A DNA stretch of 43,946 nt from positions 1 to 43,946 of IMG/VR virus record IMGVR_UViG_3300017912_002579. One strand, 5' to 3'. Each line of letters begins with the position of its first letter. Within the stretch, counting starts at the first letter, position 1. The position numbers and the translations under genes are program-made. Below are positions 6,625 through 28,380 of this stretch, in pieces. Below the pieces are notes generated by a model. That model was given only the letters and a program-made list of their open reading frames with translations. It ran no database searches and had not been told where the DNA came from. The stretch is from a virus (lineage: Duplodnaviria > Caudoviricetes).

Positions 6625-7152
6625 ATGGAAATCCGTGAGATCGTCGTGCCTGAAATTAACTCGGCTGTGGACCTGCCGCGTGTCGCAATACCGCAAGCAC
6701 CGCCGGTCACACTAGATATCGGCGTGCCAGTAATAGAACTGCCTCACTTCAATCCGATGGATATTGAGCCTGAGGTTGAGCCGCAGCCTGTCAAGCCTGC
6801 AAGGCCCAGGCCTGCTGATCCACCACCAGCTGCAACGCCACCGCCGGTCAAGCTCCCCAAAAAAGAACAACCAACAGCACCAGCACCAGAAACACCAGCA
6901 CAATCACCCGTCGAGCCTAAACCGCTAACCCAGCGTATCGTCGAAGCAATCCCGACTATCCCGCAGGCGGTTAATACGGCTGGCACATCGGCCATCGCAG
7001 TATCAGCTGCTCTAGCCACTCCCATACTGCTCAAAGCGATCCGGCCGACGATTAGGAAGTTGGCAAAAAAACTTCAGCAGGCACTGGGTAAAAGAGTCAA
7101 AGTTGAGAGTGTCTATGAGCGGAGGAAGTTCCAGAGGTCGTTACGGAAATAG
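6625..7152 (+). CDS. Proline-rich membrane-associated protein
   Basis: Pro-rich middle, hydrophobic AIAVSAALATPILL segment and basic C-terminus. Confidence 0.65.
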   Translation: MEIREIVVPEINSAVDLPRVAIPQAPPVTLDIGVPVIELPHFNPMDIEPEVEPQPVKPARPRPADPPPAATPPPVKLPKKEQPTAPAPETPAQSPVEPKPLTQRIVEAIPTIPQAVNTAGTSAIAVSAALATPILLKAIRPTIRKLAKKLQQALGKRVKVESVYERRKFQRSLRK

Positions 7153-9847: not shown

Positions 9848-10366
9848 GTGCCGGTATTAAGTGATTGGGAGATCAAGGCACGCTGCAAGGGCAGCAGCAT
9901 GGTGGTGCCGTTCGATCCTGAGTTATTGAACCCTGCCAGCCTTGATGTGGTGCTCGGTGATCGCTTGATGGTCGAGAGCATCTACCAGCCGGAATTCGTA
10001 CAGTACGACATCTCGCACAACACCGAGTCTGACCCGTACTGGCTGCAGCCTGACGAATTTGTCTTAGCTGAGACGCAGGAGACGTTCAATCTGCCCGAAG
10101 ACTTGTCGGCGCAATTCGTTTTGAAATCCAGCCGAGCCAGAGCGGGCTATCAGCATATGCTGGCCGGATGGTGTGATCCTGGCTGGTATGGCAGTCGCCT
10201 GACACTGGAGCTAAAAAATGTGCGACTACATCACCCGCTGCCACTATATCCTGGCCTCAAAATCGGCCAGATGGTGTTTCATACCATGTCCAGTGTGCCA
10301 CTCAACAGCTATGCGGACATTGGCCACTACAACAACCACTCGACGGTGATGCCATCGGTGGTTTGA
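9848..10366 (+). CDS. dcd: dCTP deaminase
   Basis: LSDWEI, NPASLDVVLG, LKSSRARAG, DPGWYGSRLTLE and GLKIGQMVF motifs. Confidence 0.9.
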   Translation: MPVLSDWEIKARCKGSSMVVPFDPELLNPASLDVVLGDRLMVESIYQPEFVQYDISHNTESDPYWLQPDEFVLAETQETFNLPEDLSAQFVLKSSRARAGYQHMLAGWCDPGWYGSRLTLELKNVRLHHPLPLYPGLKIGQMVFHTMSSVPLNSYADIGHYNNHSTVMPSVV

Positions 10367-10601: not shown

Positions 10602-10738
10602 TACATGCGCACCGCCTGCTCATAAATCCACTTAGCCTGCCATTCCTGCCCGTGTTCGCGGGTCATGCCCGCATATGTGATCCGCCAAAGCGGCCCAGAT
10701 GGTGTGTCGATCTGGACCAGCTTTGGGGGCGGTGTCAT
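10559..10738 (-). CDS. Small hypothetical protein (59 aa)
   Basis: Read by hand: MTPPPKLVQIDTPSGPLWRITYAGMTREHGQEWQAKWIYEQA...; start overlaps the sigma stop (TGATG). Confidence 0.6.
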   Translation of the reverse strand: MTPPPKLVQIDTPSGPLWRITYAGMTREHGQEWQAKWIYEQAVRMYHSAVNPASSSITL

Positions 10739-11622
10739 CAGCTTGCCACGAAGTTCAGGTAACGGCGCATCTTGTTGTTAATGCGCAGTAGACGTTGCCG
10801 CACTGCCTCTCTAGAGACAGATTCCGCTGTAGCTATCTCTTGCAACGTACTTAAAGCGTAGCCATCTAGGCCGTAGGCCATAGATGCCACCACGCGTTCT
10901 TTTTCAGGCAGCTTTTCGATGACTTTGCACGCCTTGTCGATTAGCTGCCGTTCAGCAGATTCTTCAAGTGCGTCTTTCTGCTCACGGTCTGGGATGATAT
11001 CGATCAGCTGTGCGCCGCCGTCATCACTCATTTGCGTGTGCAAGCTACCCATCCTCGGATATCGCTCAAGCAACAACGCCAACTGCTCGGGCTCCATGTC
11101 CAGGTATTCGGCTGATTCTTGCGTCGTGGGTGCCCTGTCGTTGGCTTCATGGAACCGTGCTGCCCATTTGCGCAGCTTGGTCAGGCTGTCGAGATGATTA
11201 ACAGGCAGCCGCATTACGCGGTCCTGTTTCTGAATCGACCGGTTGATGCCTTGACGGATCCACCAGTACGCGTAGGTGCTGAATTTGTAGCCGCGTTCAG
11301 GGTCGAACTTCTCGACCCCACGGATCAGTCCAATGCTGCCCTCCTGTACAATGTCCATAAATGTCATGGTCTGTGCAAGGTGGGCACTGCGCTTGGCGAC
11401 ATGAGCCACCAGGCGCAAATTGGCTGAGACCATGCGCTCTTTGGCACGCCTGCCGAATCGCAGGGTGCGTTGTTCTTGCGCAGTATATGGGCCTTTAGGC
11501 TTGTCCTCTAGTAGCCGCATCATCGCTTGGACTCTGCGGCCGCACAGGATCTCCTCTGTAGCTGTCAGCAGCGGTACGCGATTTATTGCTGCGTAGTAGC
11601 TGTCTTCCGCGGACTTTGGCAT
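10738..11622 (-). CDS. RNA polymerase sigma-70 family factor (cyanobacterial group-2-like, regions 1.2-4)
   Basis: PLLTATEEI, MVSANLRLV, EKFDPERGYKFSTYAYWWIRQ, and region 4 HTH TLQEIA...VSREAVRQ. Confidence 0.92.
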   Translation of the reverse strand: MPKSAEDSYYAAINRVPLLTATEEILCGRRVQAMMRLLEDKPKGPYTAQEQRTLRFGRRAKERMVSANLRLVAHVAKRSAHLAQTMTFMDIVQEGSIGLIRGVEKFDPERGYKFSTYAYWWIRQGINRSIQKQDRVMRLPVNHLDSLTKLRKWAARFHEANDRAPTTQESAEYLDMEPEQLALLLERYPRMGSLHTQMSDDGGAQLIDIIPDREQKDALEESAERQLIDKACKVIEKLPEKERVVASMAYGLDGYALSTLQEIATAESVSREAVRQRLLRINNKMRRYLNFVAS

Positions 11623-11915
11623 GAATAGATGGCTTTCAAAAGTAGGAGATAGAGGATGGCGTCGTCAATACGACCGGCGATGGGCTCTGATTTGGCCCTC
11701 TCTGGCTCTCGGATGTGGTTCTGGATCGCGTCCATGTGCTTGGTCAGGTAGACGAAGCACACGGCATCCGGAGCCAACCCAAGCGCCTTTGAGAGCCGCT
11801 TGAAGTTGTCTAACTGGTTGTCGCTATTGGCATATTCATGTCCTTTGCTTTGTGTTAGACGGGTGATGTCGTCCCAGGTATCGCCACACAATGTGACGAA
11901 TTCCTGGGTGCTCAT
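11583..11915 (-). CDS. Putative all-alpha nucleotide pyrophosphatase / nucleotide-modification-associated protein (DUF1599/Nmad1-like)
   Basis: KGHEYA...LDNFKR...KHMD...SEPIAGRIDDAILYLLL pattern. ATG 11915 is coupled to the upstream stop (ATGA). Confidence 0.55.
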   Translation of the reverse strand: MSTQEFVTLCGDTWDDITRLTQSKGHEYANSDNQLDNFKRLSKALGLAPDAVCFVYLTKHMDAIQNHIREPERAKSEPIAGRIDDAILYLLLLKAIYSCQSPRKTATTQQ

Positions 11916-12166
11916 CTCACAATTCGTGACCATGGTGCGTCCTTGGGGTTGGGGTTGTTGGGTCGCCATGTGTATTCGCAGTCATCCATGAGCCAGCGGT
12001 AAAAGTTAGAGCTCATGCCACCGTGGGCTGGGTGCTGTGGCCATGGCTCACCAAAAAAGTCGATAACGTCGGCGGTGCTGACGTCTGAGAGACACCGTGC
12101 AATGGACATGGGAGTGTGGCCGCGCTTGCGTAGGCGGATAACCTCTTGGGCTTGCTCGAAAGTCAT
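11912..12166 (-). CDS. Hypothetical protein, possible HTH
   Basis: VIRLRKRGHTPMSIARCL resembles an HTH; translationally coupled to datZ. Confidence 0.6.
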   Translation of the reverse strand: MTFEQAQEVIRLRKRGHTPMSIARCLSDVSTADVIDFFGEPWPQHPAHGGMSSNFYRWLMDDCEYTWRPNNPNPKDAPWSRIVR

Positions 12167-12714
12167 GTGTTGCAGTAGGTGTCGTTGAAGAGTCCGTGCA
12201 GAGCGGCTTGCGATACAGCATCAATAGGCGACCTATGCAGTCGATCCCACATCTGTTCTGCTAACAGCTCACGCACATCGATGGCATGCTGCCCGGTGCC
12301 GTTGATTTTGAGATACAAAATCGATTCTGCGGTGTCGCAAAATTTGCAGAAGGCAGCTGTCACGTCTTCCATCTTATGCACCTCGTCAAGTGGTGGGAAG
12401 ATATCAGACTCAAGCTGATTGAGCCAGGCTTTGACTTCTGGCGTCTTGTGCGGTGTAGGCATGTCGCCTGTCCGGATTTCGGGCAGGTCGTGGATCAATG
12501 CCCACTCCTCAGCGAGTACCTGCTCATTGATAGGCAACCGGATCGACGGCCCCCATTCTCTGACCAAGACCCACACGCGGTACATATGTTCCGCGATGTT
12601 TTGTCTGGTGGTGGTGTGCACAATGCCCCATCTAGAGATGTGACTGGCACGCAGGAAGGTGGCGGCACCTTCGAGCTTGCCTTGATGCCTATTGGACATG
12701 TGAAAGAGCCCCAT
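12163..12714 (-). CDS. datZ: HD-domain dATP triphosphohydrolase of the Z-genome pathway
   Basis: LRASHISRWGIV...QNIAEHM...ALIHDLPEIRTGDMPTPHK...KFCDTAE closely matches S-2L DatZ as recalled, and it lies next to purZ/mazZ. True start may be ATG 12699. Confidence 0.9.
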   Translation of the reverse strand: MGLFHMSNRHQGKLEGAATFLRASHISRWGIVHTTTRQNIAEHMYRVWVLVREWGPSIRLPINEQVLAEEWALIHDLPEIRTGDMPTPHKTPEVKAWLNQLESDIFPPLDEVHKMEDVTAAFCKFCDTAESILYLKINGTGQHAIDVRELLAEQMWDRLHRSPIDAVSQAALHGLFNDTYCNT

Positions 12715-13069
12715 TGTCTTGTCGTTTCCAGCGGCGTGCGCGGTTTTTAGTCATTTTGCGCATGACGGCCTGGTGCATATCAACCTGCTGTAGATGGAAC
12801 AGGTCGAGCACCAATATCGCCACGTCTGCCAGCTCCATCGGATCTGACATGCGCTCTGATGCGATCAGCTCGCCGATCTCTTCCAGTAGCTTCGCAATGG
12901 TGGACATTGCGTCACGGTCTGGATTGACGGTATCGGCCCAGCTGGCGATGTCAGCCTGCAGCTCCTCGATATCGCTGGTAGATCGCTTTGATTCGATCAG
13001 CCTCGATAGCCGGTGCGCCGACCCGGTAGATGTCTGCGAGAGACGGTCCGAACCCGAGGTATTGGACAT
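12689..13069 (-). CDS. mazZ: MazG-like (d)GTP pyrophosphohydrolase supplying dGMP to PurZ (start uncertain)
   Basis: ELQADIASW...IAKLLEEIGELIAS...ELADVAILVLDL...NRARRW: MazG-type acidic motifs, matching S-2L MazZ as recalled. Confidence 0.88.
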   Translation of the reverse strand: MSNTSGSDRLSQTSTGSAHRLSRLIESKRSTSDIEELQADIASWADTVNPDRDAMSTIAKLLEEIGELIASERMSDPMELADVAILVLDLFHLQQVDMHQAVMRKMTKNRARRWKRQDNGALSHVQ

Positions 13070-14033
13070 TGGTGCATTCATTGAGTCGTTCCCAGATGTC
13101 AACCAGGTGCTTGTACTGGACTGGATATTGCGCAAAGTTCAGGAAGCCGACCTGAATATTGCTCTGGTAGCAAGCTTCCATCGCTTGCTGCTGGCTCCAG
13201 GTGAAGATGCGCCGTGGCAGCTTAGTCACCGTGGTGAGCTCCTGTTGCTGACCAATCGACTCAAACGAGATCTCGGCTGAATCGTGGTAGCTCGGGCCAC
13301 TCCATTCCCCGGCCTCGGGCCTGTTGGCCACACGGATCGGGAATGTGCGGAATGTGCCGTGCACCGTGGGGCTGCCATTCATCATGGGCACACCAGTGTC
13401 TGACATGATCGACGATGCCGTCACATCACGACAGGTGGTATATGGGTACTGCCCGTGATACATCGACAGGCTGAAGCCTTGGCAGCTCTCGATCAACAGT
13501 GAGGCTGACTCGGCATAAATCCGCTGCATCTTGGCAGTATCGATCGGAATGATGAACCGCATCACCGGGTGATCTGCCTGGCTGATGGTGTTGAACTGCT
13601 CCGGGTTGCGCCGGATGCGCTCAATCTGAGCTGCACCGACACCTTGCCTGGTGGAGCCTGGTGCGGTGCCGCCTTTAGATTCAGCCTCGCGGTGCCTGTC
13701 GTAGACGCAAGCTGCATGCCGATGCACATAGATATGCACGTTGCGGAATTCAGGCAACCGTTCGTACAAGTCGCCAATTTCGCCAGCCAGCCGGTCCAGG
13801 TCGATCAGGCTGCCAGGGCCGAGCACGATCTGCTGCAGCATCGGTGACGTGATGCCGCTAGGCAACATCTTGTGGATGTACGTGCTGCCGTCCCAGACCA
13901 GGGTGTGGCCTGCGTTGGGCGATGGTGCGTACGCGATCGTGTCGCATTGGATGTGCTGCGCCAGGAAGCCTGCGTATAGGCCCTTGCCGGTCGAGCCGTA
14001 TTGCGCGTCGATGATGAGGTGGCGCTTACGCAT
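12951..14033 (-). CDS. purZ: N6-succino-2-amino-dAMP synthetase (2-aminoadenine biosynthesis; PurA paralogue)
   Basis: DAQYGSTGKG (Ser where PurA has catalytic Asp, GDEGKG), PNAGHT, GSTRQGVG, RTFPIRVANR, TTVTKLPRRI, and FLNFAQY in place of the PurA TKLD motif. Confidence 0.95.
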   Translation of the reverse strand: MRKRHLIIDAQYGSTGKGLYAGFLAQHIQCDTIAYAPSPNAGHTLVWDGSTYIHKMLPSGITSPMLQQIVLGPGSLIDLDRLAGEIGDLYERLPEFRNVHIYVHRHAACVYDRHREAESKGGTAPGSTRQGVGAAQIERIRRNPEQFNTISQADHPVMRFIIPIDTAKMQRIYAESASLLIESCQGFSLSMYHGQYPYTTCRDVTASSIMSDTGVPMMNGSPTVHGTFRTFPIRVANRPEAGEWSGPSYHDSAEISFESIGQQQELTTVTKLPRRIFTWSQQQAMEACYQSNIQVGFLNFAQYPVQYKHLVDIWERLNECTNVQYLGFGPSLADIYRVGAPAIEADRIKAIYQRYRGAAG

Positions 14034-14298
14034 GGGCCTCCAGGCGATCCAGAATTTCAGTCAATTTAGAGCGCACGCGACGGCGTGAACCATCGGTTGC
14101 TTCACCCGCCACGATATAGGCGAATTGGGCAACGCGCTTTGCTTCTTCTGGGTCAAAGCCCCAGTTGATGGCGCGTCGTTCGAGCTTCCGTGCTCCATGA
14201 ATGCCGCCGTAATCTCGGCGGATCTGCTTGGTAACTTCGCTGACCAGCTTGTGATTTGACCAGCCAGCATGCGGTGCTTGGGTTGTGGATGCTGACAT
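14026..14298 (-). CDS. Hypothetical protein upstream of purZ
   Basis: ORF tightly coupled to both neighbours. Confidence 0.65.
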   Translation of the reverse strand: MSASTTQAPHAGWSNHKLVSEVTKQIRRDYGGIHGARKLERRAINWGFDPEEAKRVAQFAYIVAGEATDGSRRRVRSKLTEILDRLEAHA

Positions 14299-14594
14299 CA
14301 GAACAGGTCGCCTTCTGCGGAGGTCTGTGCAGCGGCCGGCTTGGCCTCTACGCCATAGTCGTCGATGCTGAGCGACAGGCTGATATACGCCTTGCCAGAT
14401 TTAGATTGCTTCTTCCAGCCTGCAACGCGGACCTTGATGCGGCCTTCGTCGTCAGTGTTGTACTGGTTGGCCATCACCTGGTCGTAGATCGCTAGGAAGT
14501 CTTCCTTGGTGATCTGGCCGGGTCCGGTAAAGTCGGGCTGGTTGTCGCGCTCTTTGCGCTCGTTCTTGAACAGGCTGCTGTTGAAAGCGGGCAT
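14298..14594 (-). CDS. Single-stranded DNA-binding protein (DUF736-like) with acidic C-terminal tip
   Basis: LFKNERKERDNQPDFTG...AGWKKQSKSGKAYISLSL; ends EGDLF. Confidence 0.65.
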   Translation of the reverse strand: MPAFNSSLFKNERKERDNQPDFTGPGQITKEDFLAIYDQVMANQYNTDDEGRIKVRVAGWKKQSKSGKAYISLSLSIDDYGVEAKPAAAQTSAEGDLF

Positions 14595-14815
14595 CAGAGG
14601 TTGGGTGAAAGGGTGGATTCGTAAGCAACGACAGCTGCAATCGGGTAATAGATGCGGCTGGAATGGCCGGCCTTAATGTGTTTGGGTCCGCGTGCAACGC
14701 GACGCCACCGGGCCAGAGTGACTAGAGATACAGGAAAGGGTGTATCCTCCCAACGTGCGACCAGCTGAGCAGGCGTTAGGTGCTGCTCAGGGTCAAATTC
14801 AAAGGAAGTCGTCAT
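14594..14815 (-). CDS. Excisionase/AlpA-like winged HTH protein
   Basis: LTPAQLVARW...TLARWR...GPKHIK...RIYYPIAAVVAYE. Confidence 0.75.
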   Translation of the reverse strand: MTTSFEFDPEQHLTPAQLVARWEDTPFPVSLVTLARWRRVARGPKHIKAGHSSRIYYPIAAVVAYESTLSPNL

Positions 14816-15215
14816 CCGAGATCTTCGATGATTGCTTTGTCATTTTATGATCGCCGTGATCAGCATCATCATCAGGGCAACCAGCTGCCAGATTGAGTAT
14901 GGCAAGCAATGCGTACCTACGTTGATATGTGACGGCACCGCCCCAGGCATGCAGGGCATTCCCTTTGCGGTGTTCGCCAATGACCAGCGGCGTCTCAGAT
15001 TCGATGTGCTCGCCAGAGATGTGCATCAATGTCGTTACAAGGCTGTTGCCTCGGAACGTCTGTGACAGTGCGAGGTCTTGCTCTAGCAGATGTGGTGTTA
15101 CAGCTGCCAGCACGGTCTGCAAGTCTGCGTACGGACCATATTGAGCCTGTGATAGCTCGCGGATTGCGCCGACATTCTTATGGAATGCGAGCAGTGCCGC
15201 TACGATCTTGCTCAT
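14799..15215 (-). CDS. erf: ERF-family single-strand annealing protein
   Basis: YADLQTVLAAVTPHL...GGAVTYQRRYALLAILNL...DDDAD. ATG 15215 is coupled to the exonuclease stop. Confidence 0.85.
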   Translation of the reverse strand: MSKIVAALLAFHKNVGAIRELSQAQYGPYADLQTVLAAVTPHLLEQDLALSQTFRGNSLVTTLMHISGEHIESETPLVIGEHRKGNALHAWGGAVTYQRRYALLAILNLAAGCPDDDADHGDHKMTKQSSKISDDDFL

Positions 15216-16033
15216 GATGCCCACGGGGGTAGGTTGACTTCCACGATGTTATTGGAATAAGCAGGCCAGGGCTGACTAGGCCCTAGCGTCTTGAAGCAAT
15301 CGGCCATCCGGTCCAGCAATTCGCGGGCACGGCGTGAGCCAGCTTCGATCATGCTGTCAGATGCGCGTATCACTGACACGGCATTAGGTGCTTCCTTCTC
15401 CACGCAGACAAAGAGGAAACCTTTAGGCCGCTGGCCAGTCGCCCATTCGATCACGTCGAGGTAGAAGCCCGCCTGCACGTGATATTGAAAGTTGGCGATC
15501 GTCTTGGTAAAGGCCTCAGGTGATGCATTCTGCGTGGTCTTGAGATCGACCACCCAGCCTGAGTCGGTGATGCAGTCGGCCCGGCATTTCACCTCCAGGT
15601 CTGTCTTAGGACAAGTGGCCAGGAATGTGGCCTCTTTATAGCCCTTAGCAGAGAGGATCTTGCTGGCCATTGGGTGATCCTGCAGTGCCATCGAGAGCTG
15701 GTGGCATTGTGCATTTGTGCCCATTGGCAGCAGGGTCTGCCCTTCTGCGGTGGCCTCTTCCTCGGCCTGTCGATATGCCTTGGACACCTTGCTCGCGCTA
15801 GGTGCCTCGACATATTTCAGCTTGTATTCCAGAGGCTCCAGAACGTATGCGTGGAACGCAGCACCGAACAGCAATGCTGGTGTGGGTGCTTTTGACTGGG
15901 CCTGCGGATTGAGGAATTGATGCCAGAAGTGCGCCGGGCTTTGCCCAAAAGTGATTAGCGCCGATCGGCCAATAGCACTCAGACTGTGGTATTCATCGTG
16001 TGTCATGTCGATGGGCCATGGCTTGCTGTTCAT
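15212..16033 (-). CDS. RecE/exonuclease VIII-like PD-(D/E)XK exonuclease (DUF3799)
   Basis: EYHS...FGAAFHAYVLEP...KCRADC...DLKTT...YHVQAGFY...VEKEAP. Start placed at ATG 16033, downstream of the promoter. Confidence 0.85.
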   Translation of the reverse strand: MNSKPWPIDMTHDEYHSLSAIGRSALITFGQSPAHFWHQFLNPQAQSKAPTPALLFGAAFHAYVLEPLEYKLKYVEAPSASKVSKAYRQAEEEATAEGQTLLPMGTNAQCHQLSMALQDHPMASKILSAKGYKEATFLATCPKTDLEVKCRADCITDSGWVVDLKTTQNASPEAFTKTIANFQYHVQAGFYLDVIEWATGQRPKGFLFVCVEKEAPNAVSVIRASDSMIEAGSRRARELLDRMADCFKTLGPSQPWPAYSNNIVEVNLPPWAS

Positions 16034-16055
16034 TGCTAGAAGAAACGACAGGGCT

Positions 16056-16084
16056 ATAGTACCATCTATATCAAGACATGTCAA
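16056..16084 (-). promoter_or_regulatory. Sigma70-type promoter driving the exo-erf-purZ-sigma operon
   Basis: Minus strand TTGACA-N17-TACTAT, with TG just upstream of the -10. Confidence 0.7.
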
Positions 16085-16127
16085 TCTATTGCAAGTAATG
16101 TTATCGTGAGTCTGTTGCGACACCCCA

Positions 16128-17390
16128 GTGCTGCGTCCTTATCAGCTAGATCTCATGCACCGTGCCAGAGTGGCGATGCGGTCGCACGACAAGGTGCTGA
16201 CGGTGCTGCCGACAGGTGGTGGCAAGACTCGCATCTTCTGCGAGATCGCAAAGGCTGCACGGGCTAAGGGTGCCCGTGTGCAGGTGCTTGTGCACCGTCG
16301 TGAGCTTGTAGATCAGACGCCAGATGAGAGCGTGCGCACGATCCAGTCGTGGCAGCCTGATGGCGAGGATCTGGTGATTGTCGATGAGGCCCACCACGCC
16401 TGCGCACGCACCTGGAAAGACAAACTGCAGCAATGCACCAAGGTGCTTGGATTCACAGCCACGCCACAGCGGCTTGATGGTGGCGGCCTTGATGTGGTGT
16501 TCGACGACATGGTGGTTGGCCCCACGTCTGCGCAGCTGATCGATGACGGCTGGCTGTCGCAATACAAGCTGTTCTGCCCGCCTGGTGCTGCAGATCTAAA
16601 AGGTGTGCGCCGCACTGCTGGCGACTACAACCGCAAGCAGCTATCTGAGGCCGTGTCACAGACACGCGTGGTGGCTGCAGCTGTGAAAAATTGGCTGTTA
16701 CTCGCAGGTGGCCGGCAGACAATCGGCTTCTGCGCGAGTGTGGCCCACATGGAAGAAGTCGAGCACAGCTTCAGGGCAGCTGGCATCAAGTGCGCCACGA
16801 TCGATGGCAAGATGCGCAAAGACCGGCGTGATGCAGTGGTGCGTAAATTCCGTGATGGCGAGATCACGGTGCTGCTCAGTGTCGATCTGATATCTGAGGG
16901 CTTCGATGTCCCTGCCTGCGATTGCGTGTTGCTACTGCGTCCCACTCAGTCCCTGGGCCTGCACCTACAGCAGGTCGGCCGTGCGTTGCGTCCTTCAGAT
17001 CAGCATGCCGTCATCCTCGACGCGGCCGGAAATAGCGAACGCCACGGTATGCCAGATGATAGCCGGCAGTGGTCCCTGACAGGCCAGCTAAAGCAACGGG
17101 CTGGATTGGTTGCAAATGTGCCGGTAAGAGTCTGCCCGCAATGTTTCGGAGTACACAAACCGCATTTGCGCGTATGCCCATTCTGTGGATATAGTCACCC
17201 ATTAGATAGCCGGATACCAGAGGAACGCGACATCCTACTACAGGAGAAGGAGCAGAAGCGCCGGCAGATGCGCCGCGATATCGGACGTGCACGCACGGTA
17301 GAGGATCTGGAGCGAATACGGGCAGAACGGGGCTACCACCCAGGGTGGGTAGACCACGTTCTCCGTTCACGTCACAAGCACTTCAAATGA
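16128..17390 (+). CDS. SF2 DEAD/DEAH-box helicase with C-terminal Zn finger
   Basis: LRPYQ, PTGGGKT, VDEAHH, TATP, SEGFDVP, QQVGRALR, CPQC...CPFC. Confidence 0.92.
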   Translation: MLRPYQLDLMHRARVAMRSHDKVLTVLPTGGGKTRIFCEIAKAARAKGARVQVLVHRRELVDQTPDESVRTIQSWQPDGEDLVIVDEAHHACARTWKDKLQQCTKVLGFTATPQRLDGGGLDVVFDDMVVGPTSAQLIDDGWLSQYKLFCPPGAADLKGVRRTAGDYNRKQLSEAVSQTRVVAAAVKNWLLLAGGRQTIGFCASVAHMEEVEHSFRAAGIKCATIDGKMRKDRRDAVVRKFRDGEITVLLSVDLISEGFDVPACDCVLLLRPTQSLGLHLQQVGRALRPSDQHAVILDAAGNSERHGMPDDSRQWSLTGQLKQRAGLVANVPVRVCPQCFGVHKPHLRVCPFCGYSHPLDSRIPEERDILLQEKEQKRRQMRRDIGRARTVEDLERIRAERGYHPGWVDHVLRSRHKHFK

Positions 17391-17620
17391 AATGTCCTCA
17401 TTGCGGCTCCACACACACCGATGTCTCACTGTCCTACCCGAGTGCACATAACACCCGAGTCCGCCGTCGCAGGTGCCTCGACTGCGCAGGTCTTTGGAAC
17501 ACCATTGAGTCCCAGGTCCCTGACGAGTACGTGGAGCGTTCTTACGCTGAAGGGAAGGGCAAAAGCTTAGGCATTGCGCCTGGTTTTGCTCGAAAGGTAG
17601 TACAGTTCTTAATGAATTGA
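17387..17620 (+). CDS. NrdR-like zinc-ribbon protein (no ATP-cone)
   Basis: MKCPHCG...VRRRRCLDC...WNTIE matches the NrdR N-terminal Zn ribbon; ATGA overlap with the helicase. Confidence 0.7.
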   Translation: MKCPHCGSTHTDVSLSYPSAHNTRVRRRRCLDCAGLWNTIESQVPDEYVERSYAEGKGKSLGIAPGFARKVVQFLMN

Positions 17621-17645
17621 CATAGCCTTTCATTCTTGATATAAT
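17617..17645 (+). promoter_or_regulatory. Perfect consensus sigma70 promoter
   Basis: TTGACA(17617-22)-N17-TATAAT(17640-45). Confidence 0.85.
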
Positions 17646-18086: not shown

Positions 18087-18259
18087 AGCTCAAATTTGAT
18101 GTGTCGCACGTCCGCACTGGCGAGGCGTGCAAGGTCTACATGAGCGTGTCTGGGTGGACCAAGGCCACCGTGATACAGAAGCATAATGCAAGTATCACAG
18201 TTAAATTGGTGAGTGGCCGTTACGTCACGGTCTTTGATTCACGCAACGTCAAGAAGTAA
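18083..18259 (+). CDS. Small beta-rich hypothetical protein (58 aa)
   Basis: Read by hand. GTG start overlaps the upstream stop; TAATG coupling to the next gene. Confidence 0.55.
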   Translation: MKLKFDVSHVRTGEACKVYMSVSGWTKATVIQKHNASITVKLVSGRYVTVFDSRNVKK

Positions 18260-18609
18260 TGGTCCAGCCTGAGACACGCCTTCAGAACCAGATCCGCCTG
18301 GCAGTCAGTGCGAATTGTGAAGGCGTGACGCTCTACCGCAACCACACTGGTGCGCTGCGAGACAATCGCGGCAAGTTTGTTCAATTTGGCCTGTCACCCG
18401 GCAGCCCTGACCTGGTGGGCTATAAGAAGGTGCAGATCACCGAAGATATGGTCGGTCAAGACCTGGCGGTATTCGTGGGCATGGAAATCAAAGTGCCTGG
18501 CGAGAAGGCACGGGATGATCAGCAGCACTGGTTAGACCGCCTCGAAGAGCATGGCGGCATTGCTGGCGTGGTGCACTCCGAAGACGAGGCAATTACCTGC
18601 CTTTCCTAG
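18259..18609 (+). CDS. VRR-NUC domain nuclease
   Basis: ETRLQNQIR...GSPDLVG...MEIKVPG...QQHWL...GGIAGVVHS. Confidence 0.85.
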   Translation: MVQPETRLQNQIRLAVSANCEGVTLYRNHTGALRDNRGKFVQFGLSPGSPDLVGYKKVQITEDMVGQDLAVFVGMEIKVPGEKARDDQQHWLDRLEEHGGIAGVVHSEDEAITCLS

Positions 18610-18718: not shown

Positions 18719-20635
18719 ATGTATTCATCTGCAAAAACTCCTTGTCCGATATGCGGTCGCACGTCTAGCGGCTGCAAGACGGACGGAGACTTGCTGTATT
18801 GCCGCATTGGCACCAAGACCAGCCCATTCCAAAAGCACCCGCAGCTCAAGACCGGTGATGTGATCGGCGAGTGGGCATGTGTCAAGATCAACCCGACCGC
18901 CGAGTGTGTGACCTTCAAGCCGCATAAGGAACGCACGGCTGTGAAATACCGGTCCTGGAAGTATTTTGCACCGAATGGCCGTTCATACCAGCACAACCGC
19001 ACCGATTACAACGTCGGCCCTAAGGATGTCACATGGTCTAAGGGCACCAAGGTCGATGCGCTATTGCCGTTGTGGTACGAGAGCCTGCCAGATTCTGGCG
19101 CTACGGTCTATGTGGTCGAGGGCGAGACCTGTGCTGAGGCATTGCGTGCCCTGGGCCTGTGGGTGACCAGTGTGCCGAACGGTAGCGGCAGCTGGAAGGG
19201 CAGCATGCCTGACATGCCGAAGCTGCAGGACAACGACCTGGTGCTGTGCCCTGACCGCGACCGGCCAGGTGTCGAGCTTATGCAGCGGCTCGGTGACACC
19301 TTCCCTGGATCGTCATGGCTCTGGGTGGAAGGCACGAACGCGGATGCATGGGACGACCCGTCTGACGGCTATGACGTAGCCGACTGGGTGATAGATGGCG
19401 CTGACCGAGAACGCATAGAACTTGCTATCCGACGGGAAGCGCCACAACTTCCGGTCGCGCCGTGGTATGAGCGGATTGGTGACTACAAGACGGAAAAGGG
19501 TGGCTACAGCCGCCTGAAATTGCTTGACCTGTCGAAGGTCCTGTCTTCGATGCTCCATAGCGCGTTGCGTTGGAACGATTTAAAGCAGGCTATCGAAATC
19601 GATGGTGCGCCGATGTCGGAGATTGATGCCAAGCTCAGCTACGGCAGCTTCCAAGCTGCGCATATCGATGTCTCCAAAGATGTCGCGCAAGATGCCCTGC
19701 TGCTCAGTGCCCGTGAGCGGCCCTATCACCCGATCCGTGACTACCTGGAGGCATGCAATGACCCACTAGATGACGTGACGTGGCAGAACATCGCAGGTGA
19801 GCTCCTGGGCACGCATGCCGTCGACTTCGACAATTCGGCATTGCGCAAGTGGTTGGTCTTTTGCGTAGCACGCATTTATGAACCGGGCTGCCCGTGCGGT
19901 TTTGTGCACATCCTGGCCGGTGACCAGCACCTTCACAAGACGCGCTTTTACAACACCCTCGCATCAGAGGCCTGGTTCTACGAGGGCTTCATCAAGACCA
20001 ACAAGGATGCAGACGATATCACCGGCTTGCATATGCGGTGGATCTGCGAGTGGGGCGAATTAGATGGTGGCATCAAGAACCGCGATAGTGCAGGCCTCAA
20101 GAATTTCATCACCCGCAAGACCGACCTAGTACGTGAGGCATATGGCAAGGGCCACAAGGAACGGCCGCGTTCTTTCGTCTTATGCGGTACCACCAACAAA
20201 AAGGACGGCTTTTTTAGTGATGAGACCGGCAACCGCCGATTTGTGATCTTCAATGTCGAGGAGCGCATCAACAGCGAGAAGATCGAGCAGTTGCGTGATC
20301 GGATCTGGGCTAGCGCAAAACGCGAGTATTTCAAGGGCACGCAGTGGTTTCTAGATGAGGCCGAGACCCAGATCAACAATGACCGCAACCGTGGCCTGTA
20401 TGCAGAGGACCCATGGCTGGAGAAGATCTCCTCGCACCTGGTCTACCGGTCTACCGAGTACGTCATCAGCAGCGACTTGTTGACTCACGTGCTGGAGGTG
20501 CCGATCGAACGTCAGACACAGCGGGAGCTGGTGCGGATCAACCGCATCTTGACTGCGTGCGGATATTACAAGAGCCGCAAGAAGCTCAATGGCTCGTTCA
20601 AGCACATCTGGCGGCGTTGCGGCACTGACGAGTGA
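18719..20635 (+). CDS. Zn-finger/TOPRIM primase fused to VirE(VapE)-like helicase
   Basis: CPICG...C...C; TOPRIM YVVEGETCA and LCPDRDRPG; VirE motifs YHPIRDYL, ICEWGEL, LKNFIT, GTTN, DETGNRRF. Confidence 0.85.
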   Translation: MYSSAKTPCPICGRTSSGCKTDGDLLYCRIGTKTSPFQKHPQLKTGDVIGEWACVKINPTAECVTFKPHKERTAVKYRSWKYFAPNGRSYQHNRTDYNVGPKDVTWSKGTKVDALLPLWYESLPDSGATVYVVEGETCAEALRALGLWVTSVPNGSGSWKGSMPDMPKLQDNDLVLCPDRDRPGVELMQRLGDTFPGSSWLWVEGTNADAWDDPSDGYDVADWVIDGADRERIELAIRREAPQLPVAPWYERIGDYKTEKGGYSRLKLLDLSKVLSSMLHSALRWNDLKQAIEIDGAPMSEIDAKLSYGSFQAAHIDVSKDVAQDALLLSARERPYHPIRDYLEACNDPLDDVTWQNIAGELLGTHAVDFDNSALRKWLVFCVARIYEPGCPCGFVHILAGDQHLHKTRFYNTLASEAWFYEGFIKTNKDADDITGLHMRWICEWGELDGGIKNRDSAGLKNFITRKTDLVREAYGKGHKERPRSFVLCGTTNKKDGFFSDETGNRRFVIFNVEERINSEKIEQLRDRIWASAKREYFKGTQWFLDEAETQINNDRNRGLYAEDPWLEKISSHLVYRSTEYVISSDLLTHVLEVPIERQTQRELVRINRILTACGYYKSRKKLNGSFKHIWRRCGTDE

Positions 20636-20901: not shown

Positions 20902-21225
20902 ATGGCCCCAAGGACTCCAGAAAGCATCCGCAAAGACCAACTTCGGGTGGTCAAACAGTGGCTCGACTTGTCCTGGCCACGGCACCGCATATATGAGTCT
21001 GCTGCACAGGCCTGGGACTTCGACAATGACCAGACAGACGCGCTGATTTCAGACGCGAGGTCTGAGTACAAGAGCTCAATGAGCGTGGAGCGGTCGGAAT
21101 TCCTGGCACAGCAGATGACCAGGCTTGAGGCACTTGCTGCCAAGGCCCAGGAAGACGGGCAACTAGGTGTGGCGCTAGGATGCTATCGGGAGCTGCACAT
21201 GCTCGCGAGTCTTACTGGGAAGTAA
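20902..21225 (+). CDS. Putative terminase small subunit / HTH protein
   Basis: HTH-like N-terminus (RHRIYESAAQAWDF) plus helical C-terminus. Size and strand fit TerS. Confidence 0.45.
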   Translation: MAPRTPESIRKDQLRVVKQWLDLSWPRHRIYESAAQAWDFDNDQTDALISDARSEYKSSMSVERSEFLAQQMTRLEALAAKAQEDGQLGVALGCYRELHMLASLTGK

Positions 21226-21227
21226 CG

Positions 21228-21899
21228 ATGGCACGCCGGTACAACAGGGACAAAATCGGCCGCTTCGCCAGTAAAGGTGGAGGTGGTGGCCGGGCTACTG
21301 GTGGTGCCGCTGGCGCTGCTTCACAAAAGGTCAGTGAGACTGCACGCACTGCTCGTGAACGTGGCCGTACTGCACGTAATATCGGCAAATTCGCCAAAGC
21401 TGAGACGTCGGCATCTGGTCGTGCTGAGCTGTTCAGTGCTGCTCGTGGCAGCCAGCGTCAATCGAACTTGGCGCGGATGGAGAATAAGAGCGCACAAAGG
21501 ACTCGCCAGAGTGCATCACGCCGTGCTGCTAGCGCCGCCACCGGTCGCGCCAGCACTGCTACGGCTCCTCGTGCAAGCACCAGTGCTCGCAGCGGCAGTC
21601 CGACTATGCGCACCGCTTCTAGATCGACTCTTAGCAAAGAGCAACGAGCCATGCAAATTGGCAACCGCGTAGCCCGCACTGCTAAACGCGCAGACGATGC
21701 CGCAATGGGCCGGCTGTCCAAAGCTGCCGACAAATACTTCAAGAATCCGACTGATGCCAATAAGGCAGCCTGGATTAAAGCGGGCAAAGAAAGAGACGCC
21801 ACTTTTAAAGCCTATGCGAAACAACAAGGTGGCGCTCGAAAAGCTGCTGAGCGCAAATTTGGATTAGTGCGCCGGAATGGTGCGCTTGTCTCTAGGTAA
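21228..21899 (+). CDS. Highly basic Arg/Ala-rich protein (possible DNA-condensing/internal virion protein)
   Basis: MARRYNRDKIGRFASKGGGG start; very rich in R/K/A/S. Confidence 0.65.
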   Translation: MARRYNRDKIGRFASKGGGGGRATGGAAGAASQKVSETARTARERGRTARNIGKFAKAETSASGRAELFSAARGSQRQSNLARMENKSAQRTRQSASRRAASAATGRASTATAPRASTSARSGSPTMRTASRSTLSKEQRAMQIGNRVARTAKRADDAAMGRLSKAADKYFKNPTDANKAAWIKAGKERDATFKAYAKQQGGARKAAERKFGLVRRNGALVSR

Positions 21900-22303: not shown

Positions 22304-22333
22304 AGTATATCACACCCGATCAGGGTGTGTCAA
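22304..22333 (-). promoter_or_regulatory. Sigma70-type promoter with palindromic spacer
   Basis: TTGACA-N18-TATACT. Inverted repeat CACACCC-N5-GGGTGTG at 22311-22329. Confidence 0.75.
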
Positions 22334-22593: not shown

Positions 22594-22623
22594 AGTATAT
22601 CATGCCAAAAGGGAAAATGTCAA
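22594..22623 (-). promoter_or_regulatory. Sigma70-type promoter
   Basis: TTGACA-N18-TATACT with TGn extension. Confidence 0.75.
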
Positions 22624-22763
22624 TCCCTTTCAGCATGAATCACTCGATAAAAGGCCAATTCAAGGGCCGTGAGGCCTTTGGTGGATTTGGCCGCAGCTGC
22701 CTTCTTTTTGGCTGCGGCTATGGCATCCTGGGGGCGATGCCCCCAGCCAGTCTGACCTGTCAT
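22620..22763 (-). CDS. Small Ala/Lys-rich protein (47 aa)
   Basis: MTGQTGWGHRPQDAIAAAKKKAAAAK...; TGATG coupling with the upstream gene. Confidence 0.55.
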   Translation of the reverse strand: MTGQTGWGHRPQDAIAAAKKKAAAAKSTKGLTALELAFYRVIHAERD

Positions 22764-23278
22764 CAGGCGTGCATGGCGCGATAGGTGGCCAGGCCTTGCT
22801 CGGTCAGGCTGATCCAACGACCGGTCCGCTCGACGACTCGGTTGTGCTCGATCATGCCTGCCTTCTTGAGATTGGACAGGCGGGGTGCGTTTTTCAGGCT
22901 GATCTTAGGGATATCCTGTCCAAGACGGGCCATGTAGTGGCCGTTCTCAGAATCGCAGTCATTAGTGGCAGCGTAGATCTGTGATGCCAGCTCGAAGAAG
23001 AAATCCTTGGTGGCCTGATTCAGCTTGTCCCAGGTGATGCCGCTGCTCTTGGTCTTCTTGGTGACCTGGGGCAGGATTTTGCTCTGGGCTTCAATCTCTA
23101 GCGTTTGAGCCAGGGTGACAACTGCAATATCTTTGCTGATGCGCTTATTGCCGGCAAAGATGTAGCCGTTGGGACGGAATTCGATGCCGCGATTGCGCGC
23201 AGCGCTGCCGTCTCTTTTCGAGACTGTCAGCTGGCGCTCGACGATGTGAAGAGCTTGCTCGGTGAAGGTGCGGGCCAT
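22763..23278 (-). CDS. Protein with C-terminal winged-helix (MarR-like) DNA-binding domain
   Basis: PRLSNLKKAGMIEH...WISLTEQG wHTH pattern. Confidence 0.6.
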   Translation of the reverse strand: MARTFTEQALHIVERQLTVSKRDGSAARNRGIEFRPNGYIFAGNKRISKDIAVVTLAQTLEIEAQSKILPQVTKKTKSSGITWDKLNQATKDFFFELASQIYAATNDCDSENGHYMARLGQDIPKISLKNAPRLSNLKKAGMIEHNRVVERTGRWISLTEQGLATYRAMHA

Positions 23279-23315: not shown

Positions 23316-23345
23316 AGTATAGCATACACTTTCACAAAATGTCAA
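23316..23345 (-). promoter_or_regulatory. Sigma70-type promoter
   Basis: TTGACA-N18-TATACT with TGn extension. Confidence 0.75.
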
Positions 23346-23348
23346 TAG

Positions 23349-23672
23349 TTGCCACTCATTACAGCCTGTGCTTTAATACGTTTACGGATGCAAAAAGCAT
23401 CCACCGCACCTGGACAAATGAAGAACACGCGCAGCGACGTCGAGTGCTACGCACTGGCAAAAGAGCTGTTGAGCTTGCCTAGCGGCCGTCAAGGCTGGAC
23501 CAAGGTGGCATTGCAGCTCTCGGAGCTTTCAGCCTGGGAAGTCCAGCAAGTTATGGACCGATTCAATGCTGAAGCTAGTCACGCCAAGTATCTTGCCACC
23601 ATCGCCCAATACTACCTGTGGGTAAAAGGCGGCGACCCGGTAGAGATGCAGGGCACCACTCACGTCGCCTAA
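23349..23672 (+). CDS. Hypothetical protein (start uncertain, possibly 23418)
   Basis: ORF filling the gap between divergent and convergent neighbours. Confidence 0.45.
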   Translation: MPLITACALIRLRMQKASTAPGQMKNTRSDVECYALAKELLSLPSGRQGWTKVALQLSELSAWEVQQVMDRFNAEASHAKYLATIAQYYLWVKGGDPVEMQGTTHVA

Positions 23673-24238
23673 ATACGAACATCGAGCGCATCAAGCGCTC
23701 CTACGTTCTGACACATAGCCGCCTGCTGCACCGTGCGAATGTCGCGTCGCTGCAGGCAGGCTCTTTCTAAGATCTCCTCTTTGCTGCCGCCATCCTCGGC
23801 CGCCTGCATGTAGGCCTGCAGCTTTTTACGTGCGCCATTCGGTATGTGGATCATCAAAGATTTGGTGTCGATGCACCTGGTAATAGCCTGCCTGATCCAC
23901 CAGTACGCATAAGTTGACATCTTATAGCCGCACTCCGGGTCGTATTTTTCAGCTGCACGTTGTAGACCTAGGGTGCCTTCTTGAATTAAGTCCTGGAAGG
24001 TGAGTGGCGTGCCCTTGATCGCGTAGGTGTACTTCTTGGCGATCGATATCACCAGCCGCAGATTGCTGCAAACGAATGTATCGCGTGCACGCCGACCAGA
24101 GCGCACCACCGACGGCGGCGGATCAGGGTGCTGCAACCAGGCTTGAATGCGCCGGCCAAGCTCGATCTCTTGATTCTGCGTGAGTAGCGGATACCGTGTT
24201 GCCGTTGCGATAAAATCGCCGATATCAGTCATACTCAC
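23669..24238 (-). CDS. Second sigma-70 family factor, lacking region 4
   Basis: YPLLTQNQEIELGR, FVCSNLRLV, EKYDPECGYKMSTYAYWWIRQAI; ends at 189 aa without a region 4 HTH. Confidence 0.85.
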   Translation of the reverse strand: MSMTDIGDFIATATRYPLLTQNQEIELGRRIQAWLQHPDPPPSVVRSGRRARDTFVCSNLRLVISIAKKYTYAIKGTPLTFQDLIQEGTLGLQRAAEKYDPECGYKMSTYAYWWIRQAITRCIDTKSLMIHIPNGARKKLQAYMQAAEDGGSKEEILERACLQRRDIRTVQQAAMCQNVGALDALDVRI

Positions 24239-24284: not shown

Positions 24285-25622
24285 GTGCCGAGCATACTGG
24301 ATTCTGTCTCAGATGGTTTGATCCTGGCAGGTCCAGATGACGAAGGCGTGTCTGCGGAGCAGGTGCTAAGCCGGCTCAATGCCACGTTGTTGCCGCATCA
24401 GACTGCCTTCTGCGAAGATCAGGAACACCGGATCCTCGGCTTGGTGTCTGGTTTTGGTGCTGGCAAAACTTATGGGCTTTGTGCCAAGGCCATCAACATC
24501 GCGGCTGCCAACATTGGCTACGTGTCTGCGATTTTCGAGCCTGTTGCGCCGATGTTGCGTGACATCCTCGTGCGGTCGATGGACGAGCTATTGGAAGCGA
24601 TCGACCTGCCATATGACTTCAGAGTGTCACCACTGCCAGAGTACGTGCTGAAGTTCAAAGAAGGCGAGCACACCATACTGCTGCGGACCATGGAGACATG
24701 GAATAGGATTCGAGGGCAGAACCTCTGCGCGGTAGGTTTCGACGAAGTAGACACCACCAACAAACGCACGGCAGAGCAAGCGTCACGCATGGCACTGGCC
24801 CGCTTGCGTTCTGGTAATGTGCAGCAGTTCTACGTGGCGACCACGCCTGAGGGCTTCGGCTGGGCCTGGGAGACGTTCGAGCGTGAGACAGCACCTGACC
24901 GGCGATTAATCCGTGCACGGACCGCCGACAACCCGCACCTGCCTGACGGGTTCATCGACTCGCTGATGGCCAATTACCCAGAGAAGCTGATCAAGGCTTA
25001 TCTAGAGGGCCAATTCGTCAATCTCAACACCGGTGCTGTCTACGACCGGTTCAACCGTGAGACTCACATCAGCCAGCCGCCGATTGGTCTTGATGGCGAG
25101 CCGCTGCGGGTGGGTCTCGACTTCAACGTGTCAAACATGTCGGCCGTCATCGCTGTGCGCACCAACAACCAGTTGCACGTCATCGACGAGATCAGCGGTG
25201 CACATGATACTGACGCACTTGCTAAGGAGATCAAATCGCGATATCCTCACCGCAAGGTCTACATCTATCCCGATGCTTCTGGCGGCAACCGCAGCACAAA
25301 CGCGACACGCACTGATATTCAGATATTGGAATCTTATGGCTTTAGCAATCAGTCTCCCAAGGCGAATCCTCCAGTACGTGACCGGGTGGCTGCTGTACAA
25401 GCTGCTCTGGAGAACGGCAAAGGCGAGGTAAGACTGCAGATTGCGCAGCAGTGCATCCGCACGATTGAGTCGTTGGAGCTCCAAAGCTACACGGATAAAG
25501 GCGAACCTGACAAAGACGCCGGGTACGACCACATGAACGATGCCCTGGGATATCTGATCTGGCGTGAGCTGAACCCGCTCTACGTCAACGCCGGCAGGGG
25601 CACGGGAATCCGGCTCTATTAA
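24285..25622 (+). CDS. terL: Terminase large subunit
   Basis: Walker A GFGAGKT, Walker B VGFDE, ATTPEG, nuclease motifs VGLDFN and DHMNDALGY. Confidence 0.92.
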   Translation: MPSILDSVSDGLILAGPDDEGVSAEQVLSRLNATLLPHQTAFCEDQEHRILGLVSGFGAGKTYGLCAKAINIAAANIGYVSAIFEPVAPMLRDILVRSMDELLEAIDLPYDFRVSPLPEYVLKFKEGEHTILLRTMETWNRIRGQNLCAVGFDEVDTTNKRTAEQASRMALARLRSGNVQQFYVATTPEGFGWAWETFERETAPDRRLIRARTADNPHLPDGFIDSLMANYPEKLIKAYLEGQFVNLNTGAVYDRFNRETHISQPPIGLDGEPLRVGLDFNVSNMSAVIAVRTNNQLHVIDEISGAHDTDALAKEIKSRYPHRKVYIYPDASGGNRSTNATRTDIQILESYGFSNQSPKANPPVRDRVAAVQAALENGKGEVRLQIAQQCIRTIESLELQSYTDKGEPDKDAGYDHMNDALGYLIWRELNPLYVNAGRGTGIRLY

Positions 25623-25649
25623 ACTACAGGTATCGGGCTTTGGGCGGTC

Positions 25650-27068: not shown

Positions 27069-27074
27069 TGACTA

Positions 27075-28265: not shown

Positions 28266-28380
28266 GCTGCATTCAAAATACAGATTCACGCCTCAAGGCG
28301 AAGCAGCACCCGCCAACCCGCCAGCCAAACCGGCAGCTAAGAAAAAGGCTGCCAAGAAAACCACTACCGAGGACGAGTGA
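28258..28380 (+). CDS. Small Lys/Ala/Pro-rich peptide (40 aa)
   Basis: Read by hand: MSELHSKYRFTPQGEAAPANPPAKPAAKKKAAKKTTTEDE (GTG start). Confidence 0.5.
   Translation: MSELHSKYRFTPQGEAAPANPPAKPAAKKKAAKKTTTEDE

Follow-up and report, generated by a model that had tools for sequence, protein, structure and literature searches.

What would copy the DNA of a phage that carries the genes for making 2-aminoadenine (Z) and no recognisable DNA polymerase? The question is raised by a 43,946 nucleotides (nt) long DNA of a virus of the Caudoviricetes (IMG/VR record IMGVR_UViG_3300017912_002579, positions 1 to 43,946), here called the window in its full length, which contains purZ, mazZ and datZ at 12163-14033. 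Its intact triad, of the type known from cyanophage S-2L, and the lack of a recognisable polymerase make it probable that Z-DNA is formed through an altered host nucleotide pool and copied by the host replisome. The triad and its pathway are known; new, as far as we searched, is that a Z cluster of the S-2L type occurs in a large marine clade with no recognisable DNA polymerase.

The purZ-mazZ-datZ triad

A reading of the window made earlier from its letters alone, here called the sequence-only reading, had described a complete and overlapping purZ-mazZ-datZ cluster, and three intact open reading frames (ORFs) were indeed found there on the minus strand. PurZ (12951-14033, 360 amino acids (aa)) is of the S-2L type on the basis of structure matches, residues, tree and hidden Markov models (HMMs), and is predicted to join dGMP and aspartate with (d)ATP to dSMP. 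MazZ (12689-13081, its start probably at the ATG 13081, where its gene would overlap purZ by 131 nt) is a predicted dGTP pyrophosphohydrolase of the MazZ-1 type, and DatZ (12163-12714, possibly starting at 12699) a predicted HD dATP triphosphohydrolase. The GSTGKG and NFAQY motifs reported for a PurA paralogue are both present in the PurZ product.

The S-2L enzymes were the nearest solved structures for all three products. PurZ matched S-2L PurZ 7ODX first (E 3e-102, 346 bits), the other PDB entries scoring 201, 95 and 82 (7VF6) bits and the remaining PurA at most 71; the entries behind 201 and 95 bits we take to be phiVC8-type PurZ and archaeal-type PurA. The mazZ frame 12689-13135 had MazZ 7ODY as its sole PDB match (E 5e-29) and its product matched Pfam PF04447, and the datZ product matched DatZ 6ZPA (E 2e-48) far ahead of YfbR (E 4e-5). 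Identity to the S-2L genome (MW334946) was 49, 52 and 54% for purZ, mazZ and datZ, in line with the resemblance to S-2L that the sequence-only reading had described. When 50,697 phage records were searched with PurZ, 64 matched at E ≤ 1e-20; S-2L came first (49%) and was the sole cyanophage by name among them.

Specificity residues were mapped from structure-defined lists for S-2L (PMC8342488, PMC8065100). Identical to S-2L were 15 of 16 residues of the PurZ dGMP pocket, 10 of 10 of the (d)ATP pocket (including S-2L N305, F306, Q308, G335 and P336, the adenine pocket of the window being N299/F300/Q302), 6 of 7 of the Asp loop and 9 of 9 of the ANRPEAGEW insertion, and S14 sits where PurA has Asp in the GxxGKG motif. 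MazZ kept 6/6 metal and catalytic residues (E34/E35/E38/E50/D53 and R83) and 14/17 of the pocket, including N20, I56, D60 and A92, of which N20, I56 and D60 are the guanine readers. In DatZ all 15 chosen positions were kept, among them the HD metal ligands, the W20/I22/P79 gate and R19/K81/K116. PurA models reached at most 147 bits on the window PurZ against cut-offs of at least 368. Residues, HMM scores and a quick tree (below) all favoured PurZ over PurA and PurZ0, as had been proposed, and a PurA or PurZ0 identity of the product was ruled out by PDB scores, residues and tree.

The ratio of nonsynonymous to synonymous substitution rates (dN/dS) was 0.03-0.09 for purZ and 0.04-0.06 for datZ in comparisons with the six nearest loci, counting unsaturated pairs only, and 0.33 and 0.17, respectively, against the distant locus L035. 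For the mazZ core it was 0-0.08 in 7 of 9 pairs, the other two being saturated. Purifying selection is strong on purZ, on datZ and on the core of mazZ. The stretch 11387-13580 was also recovered without a gap, and with 3 differences, in a contig from another run of this study (X2), and contigs from runs X2, X3 and X8 (two studies) cover 30/30 bins of 10.3 kb. Short contigs from an RNA run (X18) were found in 22/30 bins, which says nothing on expression.

Start codons of mazZ and datZ

The mazZ start of S-2L lies within purZ, 20 nt from its end. Close to the corresponding position the window has ACC and no start, which counts against the pathway proposed below; the loci L008-L011 have an ATG at this codon and the L034-L040 group has one nearby. 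The ATG at 13081 is present in the window and in 11/11 close loci. Over codons 318-349 of purZ, with an onset near codon 309, synonymous differences are down to 0.20 (7 sequences), compared to a mean of 0.49 and a minimum of 0.41 in 280 overlapping segments. An extended MazZ of 130 aa from ATG 13081 is likely, as the simplest reading of the start, and a regulatory element at the end of purZ may be an alternative cause of the synonymous drop. RNA structure at the purZ end was not supported as the source of the constraint, 0 of 34 predicted pairs covarying. An assembly error at the mazZ start was rejected because eight sequences (L001-L005, L007, L013 and the window) are without the proximal ATG and the independent X2 contig agrees. 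In datZ the second ATG (12699) is the one retained in close relatives and is probably the start.

Replication genes and the lack of a recognisable polymerase

A 638-aa protein (18719-20635, plus strand) consists of a Zn-finger and TOPRIM primase fused to a VapE helicase, without an AEP polymerase domain. It matches the S-2L PrimPol over residues 241-574 only, which is the VapE part (45%), and no real match to the S-2L AEP was found for residues 1-245. The latter resemble Toprim clusters (Atlas 0.94) and PHROG primases, and their predicted fold (pLDDT 92) retrieved T7 gp4, Twinkle and DnaG in Foldseek (probability 1.0, best E 1e-5). C9/C12/C19/C28, E134, D179-R-D181 and D219 were invariant in 21 rows of the TOPRIM primase. 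By alignment and predicted fold, the PrimPol domain of S-2L is replaced here by a putative TOPRIM primase of the T7-gp4/DnaG type on the same helicase. The likeness to T7 gp4 and DnaG lies in the Zn-finger and the TOPRIM fold with its acidic motifs; the window protein differs in its fusion to a VapE-family helicase, its low identity (14-20%) and the lack of a phage polymerase partner. Primases of the T7 gp4/DnaG type make RNA primers only.

Within the clade described below, the VapE helicase carries a TOPRIM N-terminus (window, G011, G012, L303), a Prim-Pol-type AEP (G002, L039, L202) or an S-2L-type AEP (S-2L, L212, L300). The alternation of three N-termini on the same helicase suggests that this domain serves for priming, with replication left to the host replisome. 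In six-frame family searches of near-complete genomes, PolA was found in 0/5 (control positive in 10/14), PolB in 0/5 and Prim-Pol in 1/5 (G002 only; the window was negative), and RepB primase in 0/4 by a weak search whose control was positive in 0/14. No polymerase family was found in the scanned window ORFs, nor in 39 scanned ORFs of G011 (39 of 64 ORF rows of at least 120 aa, overlapping opposite-frame and duplicate rows left out), a genome closed by direct terminal repeats that carries the triad and the TOPRIM protein. The sequence-only reading had overlooked that the window has neither DpoZ nor PrimPol.

With no recognisable phage polymerase, host Pol III likely copies the Z-DNA, and DatZ would be the sole filter against A. 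Host-dependent replication is ordinary for small siphoviruses. We found no published pairing of Z with it, although the Science 2021 papers and their supplements may list such contigs and the supplements of bioRxiv 2025.10.22.683976 may include contigs of this clade. The Z phages described have a Z-selective PolA or, in S-2L alone, PrimPol, and S-2L is called the sole member of its clade (PMC8342488; PMC8599892). In E. coli expressing the triad, Z is built into DNA by the bacterium's own polymerases (PMC8342488).

Palindrome avoidance as an indirect sign of Z

If Z shields A-containing sites, the avoidance of palindromes containing A/T should be relaxed and that of GC-only palindromes unchanged. 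Six-base palindromes were expressed as observed/expected ratios with Markov nulls (whole records) or codon shuffles. In whole records the A/T-containing palindromes gave 0.79-0.92 in 6 Z and 0.49-0.75 in 9 non-Z records, and GC-only palindromes were alike. For terL plus portal, 86 loci were reduced to 15 representatives and codon-shuffled: the eight with TerL identity of at least 76% had 339/330 = 1.03 (0.82-1.32) A/T palindromes and the seven others 162/271 = 0.60 (0.44-0.75), compared to GC-only ratios of 0.56 in the Z clade and 0.71 in the others. In a wider codon-shuffle set, which includes 6 loci from other PurZ lineages and whose groups were enlarged after the first result, 16 purZ sets gave 0.80-1.14 (median 0.955) and 12 non-Z sets 0.46-0.81 (median 0.69), with GC-only values of 0.325 and 0.39. 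The window itself had 380/448 = 0.85 for A/T and 0.37 for GC-only palindromes by codon shuffles. We regard the presence of Z in the virion DNA as very likely.

Several points weigh against this conclusion. Sequencing reads cannot show Z and the signature is indirect; the window retains some A/T-palindrome avoidance (0.79-0.85); the Z and non-Z ranges overlap at about 0.80-0.83; and the p-values overstate the difference because the groups are kin. The Z label in the terL plus portal comparison was assigned by TerL identity and not by purZ in each contig, and several non-Z controls are fragments that might carry purZ elsewhere. Four fragments with a short sigma factor (below) and without visible purZ gave 0.66-0.98 and were excluded from the group comparison. 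When sites of dZ-blocked and dZ-cutting enzymes (table in PMC12944874) were compared, there were two usable cutting sites, and unlisted A/T sites were relaxed as much as the blocked ones. No clean pattern emerged for four-base sites or for interrupted five-base sites, the five-base table covering 8/15 genomes. Z blocks, fully or in part, about 53% of 147 enzymes (PMC12944874), so the evasion of A-containing sites suggested by the sequence-only reading would be only partial. As an indicator of Z genomes the palindrome ratio is cheap and needs nothing but sequence, though its ranges overlap.

The PurZ clade and the history of the Z block

A protein search with PurZ gave 947 clusters at E ≤ 1e-60 among 5,817 candidates, and the best 105 of 120 PurZ clusters listed were 49-94% identical to the window, after which the scores dropped. 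A tree of 96 rows (62 of the 120 listed proteins, 24 loci and 10 references including the window) was made by a quick method with two PurA and two PurZ0 rows as outgroups. It contained a clade of 59 rows (SH-aLRT 96) made up of the window, S-2L, 10 loci and all 47 proteins sampled from the top 105, and the phiVC8/SH-Ab types, PurZ0, PurA and 15 lower-scoring matches were all outside; the window thus groups with S-2L and not with PurA, in line with the sequence-only reading. In this quick tree S-2L is nested within the metagenomic clade of about 105 clusters, which places it not alone but in a clade that includes the seawater phage of the window. NCBI viral sets were divided into seven Z groups, one containing S-2L (PMC12884076). 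A 5-kb region was found in at least 20 runs of 11 studies among the matches listed, and more than half of its words were held by three runs from seawater, all in one study; one of these may be the source of the record.

Four loci (L031, L042, L212 and L228) are close metagenomic relatives of S-2L with GC 65-68% and TerL 91-92%, and PurZ is 82-84% in L031 and L042. A further uncultured PurZ lineage (L014-L028 and similar) carries mazZ, datZ and, about 2.5 kb downstream, a distant VapE protein, and in another Z lineage MazZ is fused to an N-terminal P-loop-like domain (L012, 7310-8300). An S-2L-type triad together with a gene of family phrog_6802 and a DNA methyltransferase was observed in L198 (5259-10134), whose backbone is unrelated to the window.

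Common to the window and S-2L are ssb, erf, exonuclease VIII, helicase, VRR, VapE and short sigma (32-62%), with the replication genes in the same order; they include an SF2 helicase (16128-17390, plus strand, 45%) and a VRR-NUC nuclease (18259-18609, plus strand, 52%). TerL, portal and capsid are 25-30% identical to S-2L and 55-83% to the cultured phages KBS-S-2A, S-H1 and MED4-184. Among 21 records with TerL identity of at least 74%, purZ was present in 13, seven end before its slot and in one (G019, 74%) the region upstream is a different one, without purZ; of those with at least 77% that reach the slot, 13/13 carry purZ. It was absent in 6/6 fragments with TerL identities of 58-61% and in 3/3 cultured genomes (KBS-S-2A, S-H1, MED4-184). 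The same Z block stands beside other terminases in L202 (TerL 35%), L300 (42%) and S-2L (28%), and PurZ diverges to about 53-58% within the clade with gene order retained. Because of the TerL-linked inheritance and the synteny with S-2L, the Z block appears to be old in the lineage and mostly vertical, and the other terminases and L198 indicate that it was sometimes exchanged whole.

The sequence-only reading had left two histories side by side, and the under-sampled lineage is the better fit to the syntenic replication block, the one TerL clade and the other head modules. Transfer of the module fits less well: that an ordinary marine siphovirus recently acquired the triad alone from a phage like S-2L would agree with head genes like those of KBS-S-2A (capsid 83%) beside S-2L-like Z genes, and with the lack of purZ in the three cultured genomes, but has little probability given that the replication genes and short sigma are common to S-2L in order, that PurZ has diverged so far with its order kept, and that S-2L nests inside a clade in which every record with TerL of at least 77% reaching the slot has purZ. 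Scans with the exonuclease and helicase for sisters without Z returned only known Z-clade contigs or distant (about 30%) matches. A search of 185,579 prokaryote genomes for S-2L-type PurZ gave 74 candidates, 0 confirmed, and so linked the phage to neither a prophage nor a host. A Synechococcus-like host is suggested by the cultured relatives together with the cyanobacterial family of the sigma factor.

Comparison with known phages

S-2L shares with the window the triad order and overlaps, the specificity residues and insertion, the syntenic ssb-erf-exo and helicase-VRR-VapE block, a related short sigma and the lack of DpoZ. It differs in the AEP PrimPol domain in place of the TOPRIM primase, in having its terminase region after datZ where the window has two extra genes and a full sigma, in the head genes and in GC (69% compared to 53% in the window); the window was found in seawater runs and has the longer mazZ overlap.

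The DpoZ-type phages phiVC8, SH-Ab 15497, PMBT28 and ZP6 have an ATP-type PurZ (38-39%) with MazZ/DUF550 and DatZ neighbours. A Z-selective PolA is described for DpoZ-type phages (PMC8342488) and none was found in the window; phiVC8 and SH-Ab 15497 have a DNA polymerase I gene near purZ and a PurZ clade separate from that of the window. The PurZ0 phages (Gordonia Archimedes and Arthrobacter phages, e.g. MamaPearl) likewise have a PurA paralogue with Z function, which is about 28-30% identical to the window PurZ and on a separate branch, and have DutZ/DmtZ/DUF5664 in place of DatZ/MazZ (PMC12884076). KBS-S-2A, S-H1 and MED4-184/P-HS2 resemble the window in capsid (72-83%), portal (60-75%), TerL (55-61%), lambda-like tail genes and exonuclease VIII, in a full sigma (KBS-S-2A), and in annotations without a replicative polymerase. 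They differ in having no triad, no match to the VapE primase-helicase and no short sigma, and in stronger A/T-palindrome avoidance; S-H1 and MED4-184 have annotated methyltransferases.

The short sigma factor and promoter-like sites

A short sigma factor of regions 1.2-2 only is encoded at 23669-24238 (minus strand) and is 57-62% identical to that of S-2L. Aligned on the GY..STY motif to cyanobacterial SigA (E. coli numbering, residue list from PMC11217687), it has Y at the equivalent of F419 and C at that of R423. Y and C/S were present in 21/21 distinct short copies, and among long copies 32/34 keep F and 31/34 keep R/K, one exception being the S-2L-like L228 copy; 4 cut copies were set aside. 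Among 24 sigma-bearing records, purZ was present in all 3 short-sigma contigs of at least 14 kb and in 0/14 long-sigma records, and was not visible in 7 fragments (4-7 kb) with a short sigma. F419 lines the -11A pocket (PMC7057261), the unsubstituted C2 of -11A matters for promoter opening (PMC4496690), and sigma factors are called sensitive to the A-to-Z change (PMC8342488). We regard it as a lead that a short sigma changed at or near this pocket may travel with the Z module, and it would be a concrete candidate for the opening of Z promoters, a step named as a likely cause of Z toxicity (PMC8342488).

Against a Z-adapted sigma stand a single shared origin, which explains the co-occurrence with purZ, the lack of such a sigma in the examined loci of other Z lineages, and five near-consensus host-type promoters, which imply that host sigma must work on the window DNA. 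These sigma-70-like sites are at 22304-22333, 22594-22623 and 23316-23345 (minus strand), 17617-17645 (plus strand) and 16056-16084 (minus strand). All five are in a putative early region, three of them have an identical TTGACA-18-TATACT layout with TG extension, and the last, a pattern match of 10 of 12 to the consensus, heads the leftward run of Z genes. The scan found 6 sites compared to 4.7 in shuffles, four scoring 11-12 of 12.

A change at the F427 equivalent was rejected as Z-specific, since it also occurs in long sigmas of phages without Z. The sigma motif of S-2L is unreadable because of 6 N at 6965-6970 of the record (L029), where about 100 nt are apparently missing relative to L228; the annotated 106-aa sigma of S-2L is probably an assembly artefact.

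Proposed pathway and alternatives

The pathway may be depicted as follows. MazZ would convert dGTP to dGMP, to which PurZ would add aspartate using ATP or dATP, and host PurB, Gmk and Ndk would complete dZTP, a completion established for other Z phages. DatZ would destroy dATP and spare dZTP and rATP. Priming with RNA and unwinding would fall to the phage TOPRIM primase-VapE helicase, and host Pol III, which does not select between A and Z, would place Z opposite T. The packaged DNA would then resist many A-containing restriction sites and not GC-only ones. We infer the enzyme activities, the Z of the virion, the use of Pol III and the Synechococcus-like host.

The same pathway might give mixed A/Z DNA only, because there is no selective polymerase and dATP continues to be made by the host. 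With host polymerases, the S-2L triad produced 4-23% Z in E. coli, the triad alone reaching 12% (plasmid) and 4% (chromosome), values that also weigh against Z-DNA by pool control as such (PMC8342488), and a Salmonella-phage triad without DpoZ gave 9-27% (PMC12944874); the persisting palindrome avoidance of the window points the same way. However, S-2L is fully substituted with a non-selective PrimPol and DatZ (PMC8065100, PMC8599892) and the shared head genes of the clade show no A/T-palindrome avoidance, so that we consider partial substitution unlikely. A missed phage polymerase, outside the contig or of unrecognised fold, is less probable still. The window record is linear without a true end repeat, although 81 nt of its two ends match closely, so the absence of a polymerase leans on the CheckV estimate of 100% and on G011; no family was assigned to 4/39 scanned G011 ORFs and several window ORFs, both points weighing against host replication, and the sister lineages G002, L039 and L300 carry AEP polymerases on the same helicase. 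Yet the closed G011 has the same TOPRIM protein without a polymerase match, and the gene order of the window goes once round, starting and ending at the tail fibre. That no Z is made at all, with PurZ acting like PurA or surviving as a relic and the hydrolases doing no more than trim nucleotide pools, is hardly credible: the PurZ score against NCBIfam NF038379 is slightly below the cut-off (291.9 versus 300 bits) and counts against a functional PurZ, but S14, the adenine pocket, the W/I gate of DatZ, the strong purifying selection and the palindrome signature all speak for Z.

Synthesis of Z-DNA through the host pool and replisome would mean that a Z phage with only an RNA primase-helicase relies on pool control, which would suffice for a cellular replisome to build Z-DNA. 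This bears on efforts towards ZTGC cells, where about 60% Z at most has been reached in E. coli so far (PMC12944874). It also suggests that the PrimPol of S-2L may not be its replicase, and Z-DNA would extend to seawater phages of probable Synechococcus hosts. More tentatively, and rather doubtful as a whole, a widespread marine cyanophage clade may have a fully Z genome and no polymerase of its own, its ZTGC-DNA being copied by an unmodified bacterial replisome; the -11 pocket of the short sigma (F419 to Y, R423 to C/S) would be rebuilt to open Z promoters, S-2L would be derived with its PrimPol an exchangeable primase rather than a replicase, and the phrog_6802 product would be a further pool-cleaning enzyme.

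Genes around the triad and the rest of the map

Directly after datZ follow an 84-aa ORF of no known family (11912-12166, minus strand), a helical protein of phrog_6802 (11583-11933, minus strand) and a full-length sigma-70-type factor with ordinary region 2.3 (10738-11622, minus strand), similar to a gene in KBS-S-2A. Of 107 loci with purZ and datZ, 89 extend at least 900 nt past datZ and were reduced to 45 representatives. By tblastn, which may miss distant copies, the 84-aa ORF was found in 11/15 S-2L-type clade representatives and the phrog_6802 gene near datZ in 12/15 of these and 0/30 others; S-2L and two close relatives of it gave no match for the latter gene. Purifying selection acts on both. 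The phrog_6802 product is a four-helix protein with MazG-like top rows in Foldseek (E about 2), and the Atlas clusters matching it carry DUF1599 in 10-15% of members. The DUF1599 HMM had no match in 20 phrog_6802 members and the VIA comparison to AF_0060 (Z 8.3) was within the chance range for helical bundles. A MazG-like enzyme is a weak lead here.

Upstream of purZ and in the same minus-strand run, ssb, a 73-aa ORF, the ERF annealing protein and exonuclease VIII occupy 14298-16123 in the S-2L order. The head module of TerL, portal, MuF, scaffold and capsid (24285-30518, plus strand) is of the KBS-S-2A/S-H1 type. A dCTP deaminase (9848-10366), which may balance dTTP supply, is located elsewhere in G011 and was not detected in several Z relatives. 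A 171-aa ORF without family (22763-23278) is present in S-2L (two copies, 35-36%) and in most short-sigma contigs, and its G011 homologue has a weak Mrr_N winged-helix match. Another ORF without family (21180-21899, 239 aa, basic, Ala/Arg-rich) varies among close relatives. Both contig ends (1-353 and 43062-43946) are at a tail-collar/tail-fibre junction and match over 81 nt at 97.5% and then at 77%, a difference that suggests two tail-fibre variants or a duplicated cassette.

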